64,000 nt of DNA from Patescibacteria group bacterium. Its GTDB lineage: Bacteria; Patescibacteriota; JACPGU01. The stretch is taken from NCBI GenBank assembly GCA_022703645.1, contig JAKLDG010000001.1, positions 669,254 to 733,253 of the forward strand, in the 5' to 3' direction. Position 1 is the stretch's first letter. Each line of letters starts with the position of its first letter. Below, piece after piece: positions 5,738-52,111 of the stretch. The notes under the pieces were generated by a model. The model was not told the origin of the DNA and made no database searches. It worked only from the letters and a program-made list of their open reading frames with translations. The position numbers and the translations under genes were made by a program.

Positions 5738-5813
5738 AAATAAAAATATATAAACATCAATTTGATATTAATCCTATTATATCATAAAAAACTAACCTTT
5801 ACAAAAAACAAGT

Positions 5814-5850
5814 AAAAAATTCCCCCAATATGATATCGGGGGAATTTTTT
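5814..5850 (-). terminator. intrinsic terminator immediately 3' of gyrA
   Basis: aaaaaattcccccaatatgatatcgggggaatttttt: GC stem flanked by A/T runs, directly after the gyrA stop. Confidence 0.5.
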
Positions 5851-5851
5851 A

Positions 5852-8800
5852 CTAAAGCCTTGTTCTCTTAAATGTATTTGCTGAAAAGAAGTCTATTGCC
5901 TCTGGTTTTTTTGGCACTTGTTTTGCAACTATCTTTGGTTTTTTTATCTTAACAACCTTCAACTGTTTCTTTACAACTGTCTTAACTTTTTTAACTGGTT
6001 TTTTAATGGTTTTCTTTGCAATCTTTTTCGCCGGTTTTTTAGTCGCGATTTTTTTCACTGGCTTTTTAATTGCTTTAACTTTTTTAATTTTAGCAATTGG
6101 TTTGATTTTCTTAACAGACTTTCCTTTTTTTGCTGTTTTTTCTTTAACAGCTTTTTTGCTTTCTTTTTTCTTTGTCTTACTATCATTCTTGTGATATTTT
6201 TCTTCTTGGATCATCCCCTCAATTTCTAATTCTTCATCGATCTTTTCTAATTCACTAATCTTTTTTGCATCTTCCATTTCTTCTAAATTTTCTTCTAATT
6301 TCTTTTTAATTTCCTTTTGTGATTTTACGTTTTCAACCTTCTTTTCACCCGCATCACTTTTACTCGCTTCATCATTTTCTTCATTTGATATTATACTCAT
6401 AGAAGCAATCTTATCTCCATCATGCATTTTCATTATTTTTACTCCCTGAGTTGAGCGGCCGATCGTTCGGATATCTTTGAGCGGTGTACGAATAACTTGG
6501 CCTTCTTTTGACATACATATTAGATCGGCATCTTTTGAATCATCAACAATCTTGGTACCAATTAGTTTTCCAGTCTTATCAGTAACATTAGCAGTCTTAA
6601 CTCCTGATCCTCCACGATTTTGAACGTTATATTCTTCGATTGGAGTTTTCTTACCAAGACCGTTTTCGGATAGAACTAAAAGTTTCAATCCTTTTTCTCC
6701 CTCAGTAATAACATCGGCGCCAACTACATAATCATCACCTTTCATTTTCATACCTCTTACACCGCGGCTAGCGCGACCCATAGGACGGGCATCAGATTCT
6801 GAAAAACGAATAGACTGACCATGAGAGCTTACCATCATTATTTCGTCTTTTCCACTAGTTACCTTTATCCAATGCAATTCATCGCCAGTATCTAGTTTGA
6901 TCGCGATAATACCAGACTTGCGAACATTTTTATAATCAGCTATCTTGGTTTTCTTGATCGTGCCACGTTTTGTAATCATAAACATATACCCTTCTTGTTC
7001 TGGGTTTTTGAGAGTAATCATGGAAGTCACTTTTTCATCACTACCAATTTGAATTATGTTTACTACAGCCTGTCCTTTTGCAATTCTAGAACTAACTGGG
7101 ATTTCAAAAGTTCGCGTTTGGAAAACTCTACCTTTATTTGTAAAGAATAAAAGGTAATCATGATTCATGGTTGTAGTAATATGCGCAATACTATCTTCTT
7201 CTTTCATTGTTGCGCCAATCACGCCCTTACCTCCACGCGATTGTGTGCGGTAAGTATTTATCGGCATTCTTTTTATATATCCACCTTCGGATAACGTTAC
7301 AATAACTTCTTCATTTGGTACGAGGTCTTCATCCCGGAATTGACCAATGGCTTTCTTAACAATTCTTGTCCTCCTGTTGTCTCCGTATTTTTCTTTCATT
7401 TCATCCATTTCACCCTTTATAATCCCCATGATTCTCTTCTCGCTTGCTAATATTGCCTCAAGCTCTTTTATTAAAGCTAATTTTTCTTTATATTCGTCTT
7501 CAATTTTCTTGCGTTCAAGTGCTGCCAAAGCAGAGAGTCTCATATCCAAAATTGCTTGAGCTTGAATTTCAGAAAGCTTAAATTTCTTCATCAAGTTTGC
7601 TTTCGCTTCATCTTTGTCCGCTGATTTTCGGATCGTTGCAATCACTTCGTCAAGATGATCTAGAGCAATTTTTAGACCTTCCAAAATATGTAATCGATCT
7701 TTTGCCCTCTTTAATTCAAATTGAGTTCTCCTGGTGACAACCTCTTTTCTATGTTTTATATAATATTCTAATACTTCTTTAAGATTTAAAACCCTTGGCT
7801 GAATACCATCAACGAGTGCCAACATATTTATTGAAAAAGTATCCTGCAGAGAAGTCATTTTATACAATGAATTTAAAATCTTTTGCGGATAGGCGTCCTT
7901 TTTTAACTCAACCACAATGCGGACTCCGTCTCTGTCTGATTCATCGCGAAGATCGGAAATCCCTACAATCTTTTTTTCTTTATGTAGTGTCGCGATCTTT
8001 TCAACTAAGGTGGATTTATTTACTTGGTATGGAATTTCAGAAATTATAATTTTGAAATCACCCTTTTTGCCCTCTTCGATTTTTGCTTCACCGCGCATTA
8101 CCACTCTTCCTTTTCCAGTTGTATATGCTTGTTTAATTTCCTCTGCATTATAAATTGATCCCCCAGTTGGAAAATCCGGTCCTGGAACAAATTGCATTAA
8201 GTCTTCGTTTGTCGCTTCTTTATTATCGATCAAATGGTTAATCGCGTCACAAAGTTCCCCAAGATTGTGTGGCGGAATTTTGGTTGCCATACCAACAGCA
8301 ATACCCTCTGAACCATTAAGAAGCAATCCTGGAACTTTTGCAGGAAGTACTTGTGGTTCTTTACGCGTTGCATCAAAGTTATCCACGAAATCAACTGTAT
8401 CCATATCAAGATCCGCAAGAATTTCTTCTGAGATTGCTTTCATTCTCGCTTCGGTATAACGATACGCCGCTGCACCATCTCCATCCATTGAACCAAAGTT
8501 TCCCTGACCATCGATTAATTGATAGCGCATCGAGAAATCTTGAGCCATACGAACTAATGATTCATACACAGCAGAATCACCATGCGGGTGATATTTACCA
8601 AGAACATCCCCCACCACGGTAGCACATTTTCTGTATTTTACGTTATGACGAAGACCAAGTTCGTTCATTGAATATAAAATTCTGCGGTGCACCGGCTTCA
8701 TCCCATCACGGACATCAGGCAAAGCTCTTTGAACAATAACGCTCATCGCATAATCAAGAAAGCTGGTTTGCATTTCTTCAACCAATTCCCTTGGTTTGAT

Positions 8801-8899
8801 ATAACCGTACTTCAAATCATCAACTGTTGGTTCAACAGCTTTTAAATTCTTTTCTTTTGGTTCTTCGTTCAAATTTTGTTGATCTTTTTCTTCTGGCAT
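5852..8899 (-). CDS. gyrA: DNA gyrase subunit A with ~170-aa lysine-rich histone-H1-like C-terminal extension
   Basis: Canonical GyrA N-terminus, catalytic region and beta-pinwheel; C-terminus (coords ~5852-6360) is acidic then KKPVKK/AKKIAKK repeats. Confidence 0.9.
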
Positions 8900-8917: not shown

Positions 8918-11011
8918 TTATATATCCAAATTCTTTACCGTTTTTGCATGCGCCTGGATAAAACGTTTGCGGGGCGGAACTTCATCACCCATTAATGTTG
9001 TGAAAACTTCATCGGCTTTGGCTGCATCCTCAACTGTAACTTGCAAAAGAATTCTGTTCTTTGGCTCCATGGTGGTTTCCCAAAGCTGTTGCGGGTTCAT
9101 TTCACCCAAGCCTTTATAACGTTGAATATTTGGTTTTGAAAGTTTCTTTGATTTTTTAATGCCCTTCTCTTCAGTAATATTTTCGCCCTCGATTTCTTCA
9201 ACTTCAACTTCCGCACTTTCAGTCTCGGAAGTTTCGTCAACAACCTGGATTTGTTCAGCCGTTACACCCATTTCTTGCATGATTGATTCTTTCTCATCAT
9301 CGCTATATGCGTATTTTGATTCTTTTCCTTTGGTGATTTTGTAAAGTGGTGGCTGTGCAATATAAATATTTCCATTTTCCACCAGCGGCATCATGTTGCG
9401 GTAAAAGAAAGTTAAAAGCAATGTCCGAATGTGCGCACCATCTACATCGGCATCTGTCATAATAATAATTCGGCTGTATCGAAGACGGGTGGCATCAAAT
9501 GTATCACCGATTCCGGTTCCCAATGCAACAATCAAAGCACGAATTTCAGCTGAAGCCAACATGCGATCAAGACGGGCTCTTTCTACGTTTAATATTTTCC
9601 CGCGAAGTGGAAGTATCGCTTGGAAATTTCGATCTCTGCCTTGTTTTGCCGATCCACCAGCTGAGTCACCCTCTACTATATATAATTCACATTCTTCCAT
9701 TTTCTTTGAAGAACAGTCAGCTAGTTTTCCAGGTAATGTCATTCCTTCCAAAGCACCTTTGCGAATAACTGTATCACGAGCCGCTTTAGCTGCAAGACGG
9801 GCTCTGGCTGCTAAAACATTTTTCTCGATCATTTTCTTAGCTTCGCTCGGATTTTCTTCTAGATAAATCGTAAGTCCTTCAGCAACCACAGAATCAACAG
9901 CAGTCCGAGCTTCCGGATTTCCGAGTTTGGCTTTTGTTTGTCCTTCAAATTGAGGATTAGGATGTTTTAGAGAAACGATAGCAGTTAAGCCTTCGCGCAC
10001 ATCATCGCCGGAAAGATTATCATCATTATCTTTGAGTAAGCCTGATTTTCGAGCATAATCATTTAACGCGCGCGTTAAAGCGGTTCGAAAACCAGTCAGA
10101 TGCATTCCGCCATCTGGTGTATAAATACCATTAGCAAAAGTTAAAACATTTTCATTAAAAGCGTCTGTATATTGGATGGCCACTTCGATAGTCATACTAT
10201 CAACATTTTTTATTACATAAAATGGCGGGTAATTTAATTGATCCTTGTTCTTATTAATATGAAGAACGTAAGAAGAAACTCCACCTTCAAAATAATATGT
10301 CTCTTTTCTTTTTGGATATTTTACTTTACCTTTCTTGCCAAATTCATTTTCGCCTTCCGATTCAATTTCCTCACGTAAATCTAGAACCGTAATATTTAAT
10401 CCCCTATTCAAATATGCGGTCTGACGACAATGCTCGGCAATAGTTTTGAATGAAAACTTTGTCGTTTCAAATATTGAAGCATCTGGTTCAAAAGTAATTT
10501 TTGTTCCTGTCCAAGATGTTTTTTCTTCTTCTTTTAATCTACCAGTAGCATGGCCAACCTTGTATTCTTGAGAATAGCGCTTACCATCACGTCCAACTTC
10601 TGCGCGCATGAAGGTTGACAGGGCATTAACTACGGAAACACCCACACCATGCAAACCACCAGAAACTTTATATCCTTCGCCACCAAATTTACCCCCGGCA
10701 TGAAGAACGGTAAGAACAGTTTCAAGAGTTGACTTTTTTGTTTGAGGATGGATCTCCACCGGAATACCTCGCCCGTTATCAGTAACAGCAACCCGATCAC
10801 CTGGTAATATTTCAACCAAAACCTCGGTGGCATATCCTGCCATTGCTTCATCAACCGCATTGTCCAGTACTTCCCATACCATATGGTGAAGTCCTGCAAT
10901 ACCAGTAGAACCGATATACATCCCGGGACGAAGCCGTACTGGCTCGAGCCCTTCTAGAACCTGAATCGACTCCGCAGTATATTTTTTTGCTCCTTCTTTT
11001 GCGCTGACCAT
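8918..11011 (-). CDS. gyrB: DNA gyrase subunit B
   Basis: GHKL ATPase, TOPRIM, C-terminal ...[18 protein letters not shown]; gyrB-gyrA in tandem. Confidence 0.95.
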
Positions 11012-39280: not shown

Positions 39281-40786
39281 ATGAAATATTTTATCTACGC
39301 AAGAAAATCAACAGACGAACCGGAAAGACAAGTTCTTTCTATTGAAGCTCAAATCACAGAGTTGAAAGAACTTGCGGAGCGAGAGCATATTGAAATTGTA
39401 AATACATTTATAGAATCCCAAACGGCCAAAGAACCCGGCAGACCTATTTTCAATAATATGCTCTCGCGAATGGAAAAAGGAGAAGCTCAGGGAATTTTAG
39501 CGTGGCATCCTGATCGTCTTGCTCGCAACTCTGTAGATGGTGGCAGAGTTATCTATCTCATTGATACAGGACATATCACAGCGCTAAAATTTCCGACTTT
39601 CTGGTTCGATCCCACACCGCAAGGAAAGTTTATGTTATCAATCGCTTTTGGGCAATCAAAGTATTACATTGATAATCTTTCGGAGAATGTCAAAAGAGGC
39701 CTAAGACAAAAAGTAAGACACGGAGAACAAGTCGGAGTAGCTCCCACAGGCTATCTCAATGACAAGCTAAATCACAAAATAATTCCCGACCCAGCAAAAA
39801 TTATTTTAATTCAAAAACTTTTTGAAATGTACTCCACAGGAAACCATTCTCTGAAATCTCTCCGAAAGATTATCAATGATCTTGGCTTGACTTCTCGCAA
39901 TAATAAACCGCTTTCAGTTTCCAATGTTCAGTTTATTTTAAGTTCACCTTTTTACTACGGAGCATTTATGTTCAAGGGTGAACTACATCAAGGAAAGCAT
40001 GAGCCAGCAATTTCAAAGAAACTTTTTGATAGATGCCAAGAGATTATGCAAACCAAATCACACAAAGTTACGAAAAGCGTGATAGAATATCCATTTCGCA
40101 AATTGCTTCAATGTGGCGAGTGCGGATGTTCTATAACCAGTGAAATACAAAAAGGTCACAATTATTATCATTGCACCAAGAAGCGCGAAAAGTGTTTTCA
40201 ACCCTACATCCGCGAAGAATCTCTCGCCACAAACATTTGCGAAACACTTCAAAAAGTTTCTTTGAATCCAGATTGGGCTGACGACATGATTCAAACATTA
40301 AATAACGAAAAACAGGACACCGCCCAATCTGATGCCCTTTTTGCTCAAAAGATGAAAAACGAAATCGCAGGACACGACGAGAAACTTCAAGATCTACTTG
40401 ACCTCATGTTGGAGAAAGTAATTTCTAAAGACGAATACACTGCTAAAAAGCAAACCGTGCTCAACCAAAAAATAGACATTCAAGAAAAATTGAAGGTTTT
40501 TGAGCAAAAGGGCAATTGCTGGCTCGAACGTGCGAGAACTTATATTTTAGACGCTAAACAAGCCAAGATTATATCTTTGAATAAGAATTTTTCAGAAATG
40601 AAAAATTTCTTAAAAAAGATCGGCTCGAACCCGCTCCTGCGGGATAGAGAAATTACCATTTCTCTCAAAAATGAGTGGAAAATACTGGAAAAATTTAATT
40701 CGGAATTTCAGAAATTCGGCCAAAAAATCCCTCGGAATTTAATTTTTCAGCGGAAACTGGGAGGCCTGGATTCGAACCAGGGTTAA
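39281..40786 (+). CDS. large serine recombinase (resolvase N-domain + recombinase domain + zinc ribbon)
   Basis: MKYFIYARKSTDEPERQVLSIEAQ... catalytic Ser region; CGECGC...HYYHC zinc ribbon; last ~35 codons lie inside repeat R' and tRNA-Gln(CUG). Confidence 0.85.
   Translation: MKYFIYARKSTDEPERQVLSIEAQITELKELAEREHIEIVNTFIESQTAKEPGRPIFNNMLSRMEKGEAQGILAWHPDRLARNSVDGGRVIYLIDTGHITALKFPTFWFDPTPQGKFMLSIAFGQSKYYIDNLSENVKRGLRQKVRHGEQVGVAPTGYLNDKLNHKIIPDPAKIILIQKLFEMYSTGNHSLKSLRKIINDLGLTSRNNKPLSVSNVQFILSSPFYYGAFMFKGELHQGKHEPAISKKLFDRCQEIMQTKSHKVTKSVIEYPFRKLLQCGECGCSITSEIQKGHNYYHCTKKREKCFQPYIREESLATNICETLQKVSLNPDWADDMIQTLNNEKQDTAQSDALFAQKMKNEIAGHDEKLQDLLDLMLEKVISKDEYTAKKQTVLNQKIDIQEKLKVFEQKGNCWLERARTYILDAKQAKIISLNKNFSEMKNFLKKIGSNPLLRDREITISLKNEWKILEKFNSEFQKFGQKIPRNLIFQRKLGGLDSNQG
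40675..40760. repeat. repeat R', inverted partner of R, abutting and including the 3' CCAG of tRNA-Gln(CUG)
   Basis: Exact reverse complement of 39141-39226. Confidence 0.85.
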
Positions 40787-42985: not shown

Positions 42986-43700
42986 TTTGATTTTTGATTT
43001 TTGAATTTTGAATTATTTGTGAAATTGGTTTAAATGACTTTCTATGTTCGGAGCAAATTCCATATTTTTTAATCATTGTTTGATGTTCTTTAGTCCCATA
43101 TCCTTTATGTTTATCGAATCCATAACACGGATATTTTTTTGCTAGCTCTTTCATATGTCTATCGCGTGAAACCTTAGCAATTATTGACGCTGCTGCAATT
43201 GTTAAAATCTTTCTATCACCTTTTATAACTTTGTCTTTTTTCAATCCTAACTTTTTGACGATAAAGCCATCACTCAAGACATAATCAGGCTTGGTTTTTA
43301 ATCCTTTGATTGCCCTCTTGAAAATCAAATTGTTTGCTTCAGACATCCCGAGCCTATCAATTTCTTTTGCACTGGCCCATCCCAAAGCAAAATCGATTCC
43401 CGAATCGGAGGTTAAAATCTCATAAAACTTTTCCCTTCTTTCTTCATCTAATTTTTTCGAATCTCTGATGCCAAGTTTTTTTAATTTTGTAAACTTATAA
43501 TCATTTCTTTCAATTATAACGGCTGCTGCAGTAATCGGTCCAGCCCAAGGACCACGTCCCACCTCATCAACACCGCAAACAAAAGAGAAACCCTTTTTAT
43601 TTAGGGTTTCCTCATGTCTAACAAAGTTTATCTTTTTTAATCCTTTTCCTTTTTTTGAAATAGATTTATTCAGTTTTTTCTTCAACATTGTTATTTTCAA
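42960..43700 (-). CDS. rnhB: ribonuclease HII with K-rich N- and C-terminal extensions
   Basis: FVCGVDEVGRGPWAGPITAAAV catalytic motif. Confidence 0.85.
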   Translation of the reverse strand: MKITMLKKKLNKSISKKGKGLKKINFVRHEETLNKKGFSFVCGVDEVGRGPWAGPITAAAVIIERNDYKFTKLKKLGIRDSKKLDEERREKFYEILTSDSGIDFALGWASAKEIDRLGMSEANNLIFKRAIKGLKTKPDYVLSDGFIVKKLGLKKDKVIKGDRKILTIAAASIIAKVSRDRHMKELAKKYPCYGFDKHKGYGTKEHQTMIKKYGICSEHRKSFKPISQIIQNSKIKNQNDNSKIKK

Positions 43701-44229
43701 CTACTGGTTCTTCGATAGGCGCTTCCACTTCTGCAATCTCTTCCACTTTTTGTTCAACTGCCTCATCACTAACCGCTTCATTATTTTCCTGTTCTTCAAC
43801 AACTGGTTGTGCTAAGTCTTCAGTGGTCTCCGCATTCTCAACCACTTCATCCTCTTTCAAACCAATTTCTTGCATCATCTTTCTTTGCTTTTCTTTGATC
43901 TTTGCAGCCTTACCAGTTAATTCCCGCATGAAAAATATTTTCTTACGTCTGACTTTTGAACTTCTTAAAACTTTTATACCCTCGATGTTTGGACTATTTA
44001 ATAAAAACTTTTTTTCAACTCCTACTCCGCTCGCAATTTTACGAACAGTAATAGAAGCAGTAATGCTATTACCGCCACTTCTTTCAATAACCATACCTTC
44101 AAATACCTGGGAACGAGTTTTTGCGCCTTCTCGGATTTTCTGAGAAACACGAACTACATCACCTGTTGTAACATCGGGAATGGATTTCTTAAGTGATTTT
44201 TTGTCTACTAATGCAATTGTTGGATTCAT
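43666..44229 (-). CDS. rplS: 50S ribosomal protein L19 with ~75-aa acidic C-terminal extension
   Basis: Conserved L19 core (DVTTGDVVRV...FEGMVIE...ITVRKIASGVGVEKKF); E/V-rich tail. Confidence 0.9.
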   Translation of the reverse strand: MNPTIALVDKKSLKKSIPDVTTGDVVRVSQKIREGAKTRSQVFEGMVIERSGGNSITASITVRKIASGVGVEKKFLLNSPNIEGIKVLRSSKVRRKKIFFMRELTGKAAKIKEKQRKMMQEIGLKEDEVVENAETTEDLAQPVVEEQENNEAVSDEAVEQKVEEIAEVEAPIEEPVVENNNVEEKTE

Positions 44230-51832: not shown

Positions 51833-52111
51833 TTATCTAACTGCTGATTTCAAAACTTTTCCAGCTCTGAATCTTGCAACTTTTACAGCTGGGATTTTGA
51901 TCTTTTCAGTTGTTTTTCTTGGGCTGACACCCATTCTTGCAGCTCTCTTTTTTACTTCGAATTTGCCAAATCCTGCAATATTAACAGTATCACCACCTGC
52001 TAAAGCTTTCGTGATCGTAGCAAAAATCGTATTGAAAGCTACTCCAGATGTGCTCTTTGACAAACCAGTTGACTGAGCTACCTTTTCGATTAGTCCTGCC
52101 TTATTGATCAT
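51833..52111 (-). CDS. hup: DNA-binding protein HU
   Basis: MINKAGLIEKVA...GFGKFEVKKRAAR...PRK. Confidence 0.9.
   Translation of the reverse strand: MINKAGLIEKVAQSTGLSKSTSGVAFNTIFATITKALAGGDTVNIAGFGKFEVKKRAARMGVSPRKTTEKIKIPAVKVARFRAGKVLKSAVR

Follow-up and report, generated by a model that had tools for sequence, protein, structure and literature searches.

The C-terminal tail of GyrA is a known control point of DNA gyrase. In Escherichia coli, the acidic GyrA tail is needed for efficient supercoiling and is thought to control the wrapping and release of DNA on the C-terminal domain (CTD) (PMC11626157); acidic tails of the E. coli and Bacillus subtilis subunits are the subject of Tretter & Berger 2012 and Lanz et al. 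2014, as cited in PMC11626157. Polybasic disordered tails are already known from other topoisomerases: the lysine repeats of the actinobacterial (Streptomyces) TopA make its complex with DNA more stable and the enzyme highly processive (PMC5714199, PMC7398561), and in human Top2-alpha the time spent on chromatin and DNA is governed by the final 31 residues of a disordered C-terminal region (PMC3824022). Here we consider the gyrA gene of a stretch of 64,000 nucleotides (the window, hereafter) from the genome of a Patescibacteria group bacterium (contig JAKLDG010000001.1, positions 669,254 to 733,253), the product of which continues beyond its CTD for 175 residues as an acidic segment, a strongly lysine-rich block and a conserved aromatic-basic end. 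A full-text literature search aimed at basic GyrA tails and at the gyrases of the candidate phyla radiation (CPR) did not turn up any account of a basic GyrA tail, and what is new is this lineage-specific polybasic tail on GyrA together with a candidate new short linear motif.

Anatomy and authenticity of the GyrA tail

The gyrA coding sequence occupies positions 5852-8899 of the window on the minus strand and encodes 1015 residues, with the stop codon at 5852-5854. The product matches NCBI HRY59831.1 ('DNA gyrase subunit A [Patescibacteria group bacterium]') in every residue, and JGI, ENA and Logan assemblies contain the identical protein as well; its public annotation is 'DNA gyrase subunit A' only. 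According to Pfam and NCBIfam, the recognisable GyrA core extends from about residue 34 to residue 840, and the 175 residues of the tail (841-1015) follow in frame with it.

By composition, alignment and structure prediction the tail can be subdivided into three modules, all encoded on the minus strand. The proximal segment (residues 841-900, positions 6200-6379) is acidic or of mixed charge, with a net charge of -11, and is disordered in the AlphaFold2 models; an acidic stretch that reaches slightly beyond it (residues 875-903, positions 6191-6277) is conserved within the clade, being common to the homologues P0001-P0004 and to the loci L001, L015, L017 and L018. The central block (residues 901-1000, positions 5900-6199) consists of 45% lysine, 13% valine, 9% isoleucine, 8% alanine and 7% proline, has a net charge of +41, is predicted to be disordered and has no Pfam or PDB match. 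The last 15 residues (1001-1015, positions 5855-5899) form a terminal aromatic-basic motif, recognised by MAFFT alignment, by listing of the tail ends and by a shuffle test. The whole tail carries a charge of about +32, and 115 of its residues lie beyond the acidic segment. Its lysine and arginine density reaches 20 per 40 residues, against a maximum of 15 per 40 in the other open reading frames (ORFs) of the window, and no ORF elsewhere in the 64 kb has a comparable run of basic residues.

A preliminary description of this DNA had reported, at positions 5852-6360 (residues about 847-1015), a GyrA in which the beta-pinwheel is followed by an acidic stretch and then, in frame, by about 100 residues of the KKxVKK type, and the ORF, the Pfam domains and the composition bear this out. 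It had rightly noticed the lysine-rich repeats but overlooked the most conserved element of the tail, the terminal Phe motif. Its suggestion that a basic tail could substitute for the canonical acidic one does not hold, as the CTD is still followed at once by an acidic segment, to which the basic block has been added.

This arrangement can be set against each of the described systems. The canonical acidic GyrA tail is likewise disordered, non-conserved and placed directly after blade 6, and the first 60 residues of the present tail are acidic too; the canonical tail is however short, consists of acidic sequence only and is the last part of the protein, and in the present GyrA the +41 block and the Phe motif come after the acidic part. 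The lysine repeats of TopA also form a long, lysine-rich, disordered C-terminal region with an acidic element on a bacterial topoisomerase, but there the acidic residues close the region, and in the present GyrA they precede the lysines and the protein finishes with an aromatic-basic motif. Moreover, TopA is a type IA enzyme from another phylum and the present protein is a type IIA enzyme with a core GyrA, so that the comparison is functional only and implies no sequence homology. The chromatin tether (ChT) of Top2-alpha shares with the tail its place on a type IIA enzyme, in a long, disordered and charged C-terminal region of which the last few tens of residues are a distinct element; by contrast, the ligand of ChT is histone H3, for which there is no equivalent here, the sequences are unrelated, and the Patescibacteria motif is known from sequence alone.

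The tail is a genuine in-frame extension, neither a frameshift product nor a read-through. A strong intrinsic terminator, with a 20-pair stem followed by the T-run TGTTTTTTGT (positions 5811-5853, minus strand), begins at the gyrA stop codon; shuffled sequence would be expected to yield 0.1 such sites, and one is present. By our own estimate from base composition, in which about 7% of random codons are stops at about 33% GC, the chance of an open stretch of 175 codons is about 1e-6. Homopolymers are prone to indel errors and the 528 nt of tail DNA contain twelve A-runs of 6-7 nt, so that in a single assembly one could conceive of a frameshift, read-through or assembly error that fuses GyrA to non-coding A-rich sequence. 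The same in-frame tail with the same terminal motif is, however, present in more than 20 independent assemblies, and since this motif lies at the very end of the frame a frameshift origin is ruled out; together with the terminator directly after the stop codon and the unexpected length of the open frame, this makes an artefact improbable in the extreme. A read-through error, with the tail absent from all relatives, had been raised in the preliminary description along with a comparison with related GyrA sequences; the relatives do carry the tail and its conserved end motif.

Two ORFs on the plus strand, one of 103 residues at 5918-6229 and a second at 6006-6194, would encode poly-Phe products antisense to the AAA/AAG-rich coding sequence of the tail. 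Both are spurious, as had been noted before, because they are the complement of lysine codons and because the frame conserved in relatives is that of GyrA.

The core to which the tail is attached has all the features expected of GyrA. The N-terminal breakage-reunion domain (residues 58-498, positions 7406-8728, minus strand) matches PF00521 with E=3e-169 and contains the catalytic Tyr148 within AAAYRYTEA (the RYTE motif being at residue 147), a tyrosine that is invariant across 40 homologues (alignment A1). The C-terminal beta-pinwheel (residues 531-838, positions 6386-7309, minus strand, net charge +13) has six blades, defined by six PF03989 stretches and by the strands of the AlphaFold2 models, the last PF03989 blade lying at residues 792-838; its GyrA box, QSRGGKG at 553-559, is one substitution off the consensus Q-(R/K)-R-G-G-(R/K)-G. 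Both NCBIfam gyrA equivalogs score above their cutoffs (NF004043, 1190 bits against 902; TIGR01063, 1144 against 877), and the ParC models of NCBIfam all remain under their cutoffs on the 1015-residue protein. Finally, gyrB (697 residues, positions 8918-11011, minus strand) lies 18 nt upstream of gyrA and forms with it a gyrB-gyrA operon. The Pfam domains, equivalog scores, catalytic tyrosine, GyrA box and upstream gyrB together identify the protein, at the level of sequence, as a bona fide gyrase A subunit; its predicted function, to which the neighbouring gyrB points, would be ATP-dependent negative supercoiling with GyrB.

Conservation and distribution of the tail

We collected the 120 best GyrA hits; those that carry a name are all Patescibacteria (CPR). 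In 19 of these 120 nearest homologues the CTD is followed by a tail of 60 residues or more, with a lysine content of 18-41%. The nearest of all, P0001-P0008, are proteins of 921-1024 residues with the same kind of tail; the closest genome of the GTDB species set, L001, encodes a GyrA of 1041 residues with the same tail, ending ...GGIDFFSASTFKKGPLKIEGFKRKRIG; and the four metagenomic loci L015-L018, retrieved by means of the terminal peptide, carry it as well. The same layout is found in five independent assemblies (L001, L015, L016, L017 and L018). An exhaustive hidden Markov model search, covering 1.84 billion cluster representatives, brought in more GyrA C-terminal fragments that have a lysine-rich tail and the same motif (P0121, P0122, P0128, P0161, P0230 and P0262). 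Searched by itself against 5.8 billion proteins, the tail (residues 881-1015) gave 4415 word candidates, none of which reached E<=1, probably an effect of low-complexity correction.

Within these sequences the tail evolves faster than the core, with identities of 36-73% and 72-89% respectively, and indels are frequent. The order of charges is nevertheless kept in all 20 tails compared, which start at or below zero net charge and then become strongly basic: the start is net-negative in 19 of them and the first block of P0007 has a net charge of 0. Tail length is kept within 85-200 residues. In a MAFFT alignment of 18 tail-bearing GyrAs (A2) the sole invariant column of the tail is a phenylalanine, F1009 of the window's protein (alignment position F221), which belongs to a terminal pattern G/S/T-F-[K/T]-x-[K/R]-x-[I/L/V]. 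Examples are GFTKRKL, GFKKRGI, GFTTRKI and GFKVKKI; the window's GyrA has TFKRTRL, preceded by IDFFSA, and its immediate clade also keeps I-[D/N]-F-F-S-A-x-T-F-K in addition to the acidic stretch. Nearly all the phenylalanines of the tails fall in the terminal motif, and many tails hold two copies of it, 15-25 residues apart. Seven semi-independent lineages were shuffled with composition preserved, and in each the terminal motif turned up in 0.3-0.8% of the trials, values that are optimistic since the regular expression was derived from the same sequences as were tested.

The motif appears, on present sequences, to be specific to GyrA tails. It was found on none of the other proteins among the 52 ORFs of the window, and in a metagenome scan with the pattern FFSA[SNG]TFK all four confirmed loci were GyrA ends, the other 438 pattern matches having failed tblastn.

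The cores of the tail-bearing proteins are about 60-89% identical to that of the window and belong to several clades of Patescibacteria. On a neighbour-joining tree of GyrA core domains, tails are found in the clade of the window's GyrA, in P0010/P0011, in P0014/P0045/P0048/P0084, in P0016/P0104/P0113/P0097 and in P0108. Tail-less members (P0009, sister to the clade of the window's GyrA; P0052/P0054; and P0040) are nested among the tail-bearers, and a large Moranbacteria-like group is uniformly tail-less. Because neighbouring tail-bearing clades hold nested tail-less members, the simplest reading of the tree suggests that the tail is an old, vertically inherited trait that has been lost repeatedly.

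It could also be supposed that the tail is a tolerated, functionless lysine-rich linker, swollen by AT-biased mutation and slippage. The genome is indeed AT-rich, the tail diverges fast with many indels, most relatives do without it and it matches no known family. Neutral expansion nevertheless sits badly with the retention of the Phe motif beyond 85-200 low-complexity residues in lineages with cores only about 60% identical to that of the window; with this motif at the far end, the frame must be maintained throughout the tail. The conserved order of charges speaks against it too, as does the absence of recent tandem repeats in the DNA: Tandem Repeats Finder detected only 2-4 copies of A/T-rich units of 9-12 nt (scores 31-47), no meaningful repeat. 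We therefore hold neutral expansion to be quite unlikely.

Other GyrA tails were encountered during these searches. A second class of long tails ends in N/P-[Y/W]-W-G-[G/K]-x-K-K, for example VNYWGGNKK, PNYWGKK and NWWGKA (members P0059, P0163, P0164, P0174, P0203, P0235, P0238, P0241 and P0250), and may represent an alternative terminal anchor on the GyrA of other uncultured lineages. Basic tails rich in alanine, proline, arginine and lysine were also seen on the GyrA C-terminal fragments P0200, P0236/P0277, P0259, P0214 and P0153, with endings such as ...KKTPAKPASAKAPAGKKAPAKKAKTTTKK; these look high-GC in origin, and basic GyrA tails may have arisen more than once outside Patescibacteria.

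Structure prediction and a proposed role for the tail

AlphaFold2 was run on full-length GyrA with 40 sequences (run 1) and on the CTD and tail with 16 tail-bearing sequences (run 2). In both runs the pinwheel blades have predicted local distance difference test (pLDDT) values of 80-90, and almost all of residues 841-1015 fall below 50, the lysine-rich block being at about 30. The only secondary structure proposed in the tail is a low-confidence helix over the acidic stretch (residues 875-903 in run 1 and 864-904 in run 2, pLDDT about 40-54), and the tail is accordingly predicted to be intrinsically disordered. Pfam finds no family in the full protein besides PF00521 and PF03989; at E<=10, the tail and nine homologous tail ends matched only BKRF4 and Asp f 4, both below threshold and attributable to chance, and a PDB sequence search with the tail returned nothing relevant. 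We had also considered that the terminal G-F-x-K-R-x-I motif might derive from a CTD blade, as what is left of its first strand, but the tails have no PF03989 match and the idea was dropped.

The preliminary description had likened the tail to those of histone H1, Hc1 and AlgP. In composition this is correct: the H1 tails, chlamydial Hc1, AlgP and the mycobacterial HupB tails share with it about 40-45% lysine, disorder and KK-x-x spacing, and a non-specific polyanion-binding chemistry is probably common to them all. Homology, on the other hand, is not supported. With no Pfam match at E<=10, no PDB match and no tandem repeats, the resemblance is, as judged from the sequences compared, one of lysine content and disorder and not of family membership. 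H1 has a globular winged-helix domain, of which Pfam finds none in this GyrA, and its tail is rich in lysine, alanine and proline with S/TPxK motifs, whereas the present tail has no SPKK or TPKK and has valine and isoleucine (13% and 9%) in place of much of the alanine and proline (8% and 7%). AlgP consists of tandem KPAA repeats, and neither KPAA units nor tandem DNA repeats occur here; autocorrelation of lysine and arginine along the tail is weak, with a peak of 0.17 at lag 4. Lastly, H1, Hc1, AlgP and HupB are dedicated architectural proteins, whereas this tail sits on an enzyme.

We consider it fairly probable that the tail, as a genuine, vertically inherited and disordered extension of the GyrA CTD, works through its three modules, with the +41 block as a DNA tether and the terminal motif as an anchor. 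The acidic segment after blade 6 would correspond to the acidic tail that regulates E. coli and B. subtilis GyrA, and would continue in the same role. The basic block of about 100 residues would most likely act as a non-specific electrostatic DNA tether, holding the enzyme on DNA or contacting the DNA that flanks the CTD wrap, with a gain in affinity, residence time or processivity. The interplay of acidic segment and basic block could tune the wrapping and release of DNA by the CTD, the acidic segment possibly being a rival of DNA for binding to the basic block and to the rim of the CTD. As a short linear motif, the terminal Phe element would serve for anchoring, with DNA itself or a protein as its candidate partner. 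This proposal is made by analogy with the lysine repeats of TopA, the acidic tail of E. coli GyrA and the last 31 residues of Top2-alpha; it is from these that we infer DNA binding by the tail, its effect on wrapping or processivity and a role for the terminal motif, and the preliminary description's idea of a DNA-binding tail that alters wrapping is in the same sense plausible.

Several points weigh against this tethering role. As many as 99 of the 120 nearest GyrAs have fewer than 30 residues after the CTD, which indicates that the tail is dispensable for gyrase function as such, and the sister lineage P0009 has no tail despite the same gene order. The lysine-rich tails of P0010 and P0011 lack the terminal motif, and the shuffle values that support the motif are, as said above, optimistic. 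A genome with about 33% GC favours lysine enrichment in any case. AlphaFold2 docks neither the tail nor the motif on the CTD or the N-terminal domain, both remaining at pLDDT of about 30-40; DNA binding by the tail is a prediction.

The terminal motif could instead serve protein docking or a condensate, recruiting gyrase to the replisome, RNA polymerase, GyrB or a nucleoid scaffold, with the lysine-rich region as a spacer or as the means of co-condensation with nucleic acid. The motif is short, terminal, often duplicated and better conserved than the rest of the tail, as is typical of short linear motifs, and a separate set of GyrA tails has an aromatic-basic ending of another kind (the N-[Y/W]-W-G-[G/K]-x-K-K class described above). 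No partner was found, however, the occurrence of an acidic insertion in GyrB does not follow that of the tail, and the motif is absent from the other proteins of the window; we regard docking as an unlikely main function.

Binding to the membrane would be another use for such a sequence. Polybasic segments with aromatic residues bind membranes in the MARCKS effector domain and in the membrane-targeting sequence of MinD (KKGFLKRLF), and a tail that bound anionic phospholipids would keep gyrase at the membrane in cells as small as these. Terminal strings such as KGFTKRKL and SGFKKRGI do join phenylalanine with lysine and arginine, and the tail is disordered in the AlphaFold2 models, but with F at i and I/L/V at i+5 the hydrophobic residues are spaced neither as in an amphipathic helix nor as in a strand, and no helix is predicted at the motif. 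Long lysine-rich tails on DNA enzymes are, moreover, documented as DNA binders (PMC5714199, PMC3824022), and membrane tethering appears to us very unlikely.

The acidic stretch also contains a possible internal start. The ATG of Met896 (window 6212-6239, minus strand), at the beginning of the conserved MIQEEKYH just before the lysine-rich block, is directly preceded by GAGGGG, a possible internal ribosome-binding site, and could in principle yield a separate H1-like product. The Borrelia protein Gac, a GyrA CTD expressed on its own, would be a parallel. The methionine is kept in most close relatives, though not in P0004, where it is absent; the GAGGGG abuts the ATG without a spacer, and the LEIIGM or LEVMGM of relatives need not keep the purine run. 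A separate product of this kind is highly improbable.

One can go further and propose that in several lineages of Patescibacteria gyrase has become chromatin-tethered, so that GyrA would act as a nucleoid-associated protein, the terminal motif would be a new bacterial short linear motif docking on a partner or DNA feature, and the tail would be a prokaryotic counterpart of the Top2-alpha tether that shifts the supercoiling set-point or processivity of the enzyme. We put this forward as a tentative and rather doubtful extension; were it true, the N-[Y/W]-W-G-[G/K]-x-K-K tails would be an alternative solution to the same problem.

CPR bacteria cannot be cultured alone, and the finding adds to the scant knowledge of chromosome organisation in them. 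It also extends the theme of the polybasic disordered tail from the type IA enzymes of Actinobacteria and from eukaryotic Top2 to a bacterial gyrase. An acidic segment combined with 41 added charges and a terminal motif amounts to a natural test of how tail electrostatics act on wrapping, set-point and processivity, for which the tail-less sister P0009, with its identical gene order, provides a natural control.

Operon context and other genes of the window

The order gyrB-gyrA-infB-der is common to the window and to its relative L019, of the tail-less L019/P0009 lineage. In the lineages of P0104 and P0054, a small gene lies between gyrB and gyrA (L020, 5598-5999; L021, 5376-5999). The products, of 133 and 207 residues respectively, have no Pfam match on record and appear unrelated to one another.

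The GyrB of the window contains a largely acidic insertion of about 40 residues (positions about 9128-9244, minus strand, inside gyrB at 8918-11011), immediately ahead of a motif of ten residues, which is absent from the Bacilli GyrBs of L010-L014. A co-variation of this insertion with the GyrA tail was considered and rejected: the insertion is present in tail-bearing (the window, L001, L018 and L020) and in tail-less (L019 and L021) loci alike.

The window also encodes a homologue of HU (PF00216; positions 51833-52111, minus strand), a plain protein of 92 residues without a lysine-rich tail; in this window it is gyrase that has the polybasic tail, and HU, the classical nucleoid protein, has none. 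The second-highest density of lysine and arginine in the window (15 per 40 residues) belongs to ribosomal protein L19 (positions 43666-44229, minus strand), in which the Pfam domain covers only residues 5-114 of 187 and is followed by a C-terminal extension of about 70 residues with an acidic end. Finally, a large serine recombinase of 501 residues (positions 39281-40786, plus strand), with Resolvase, Recombinase and Zn-ribbon domains, is found among housekeeping genes and may mark an integrated mobile element.

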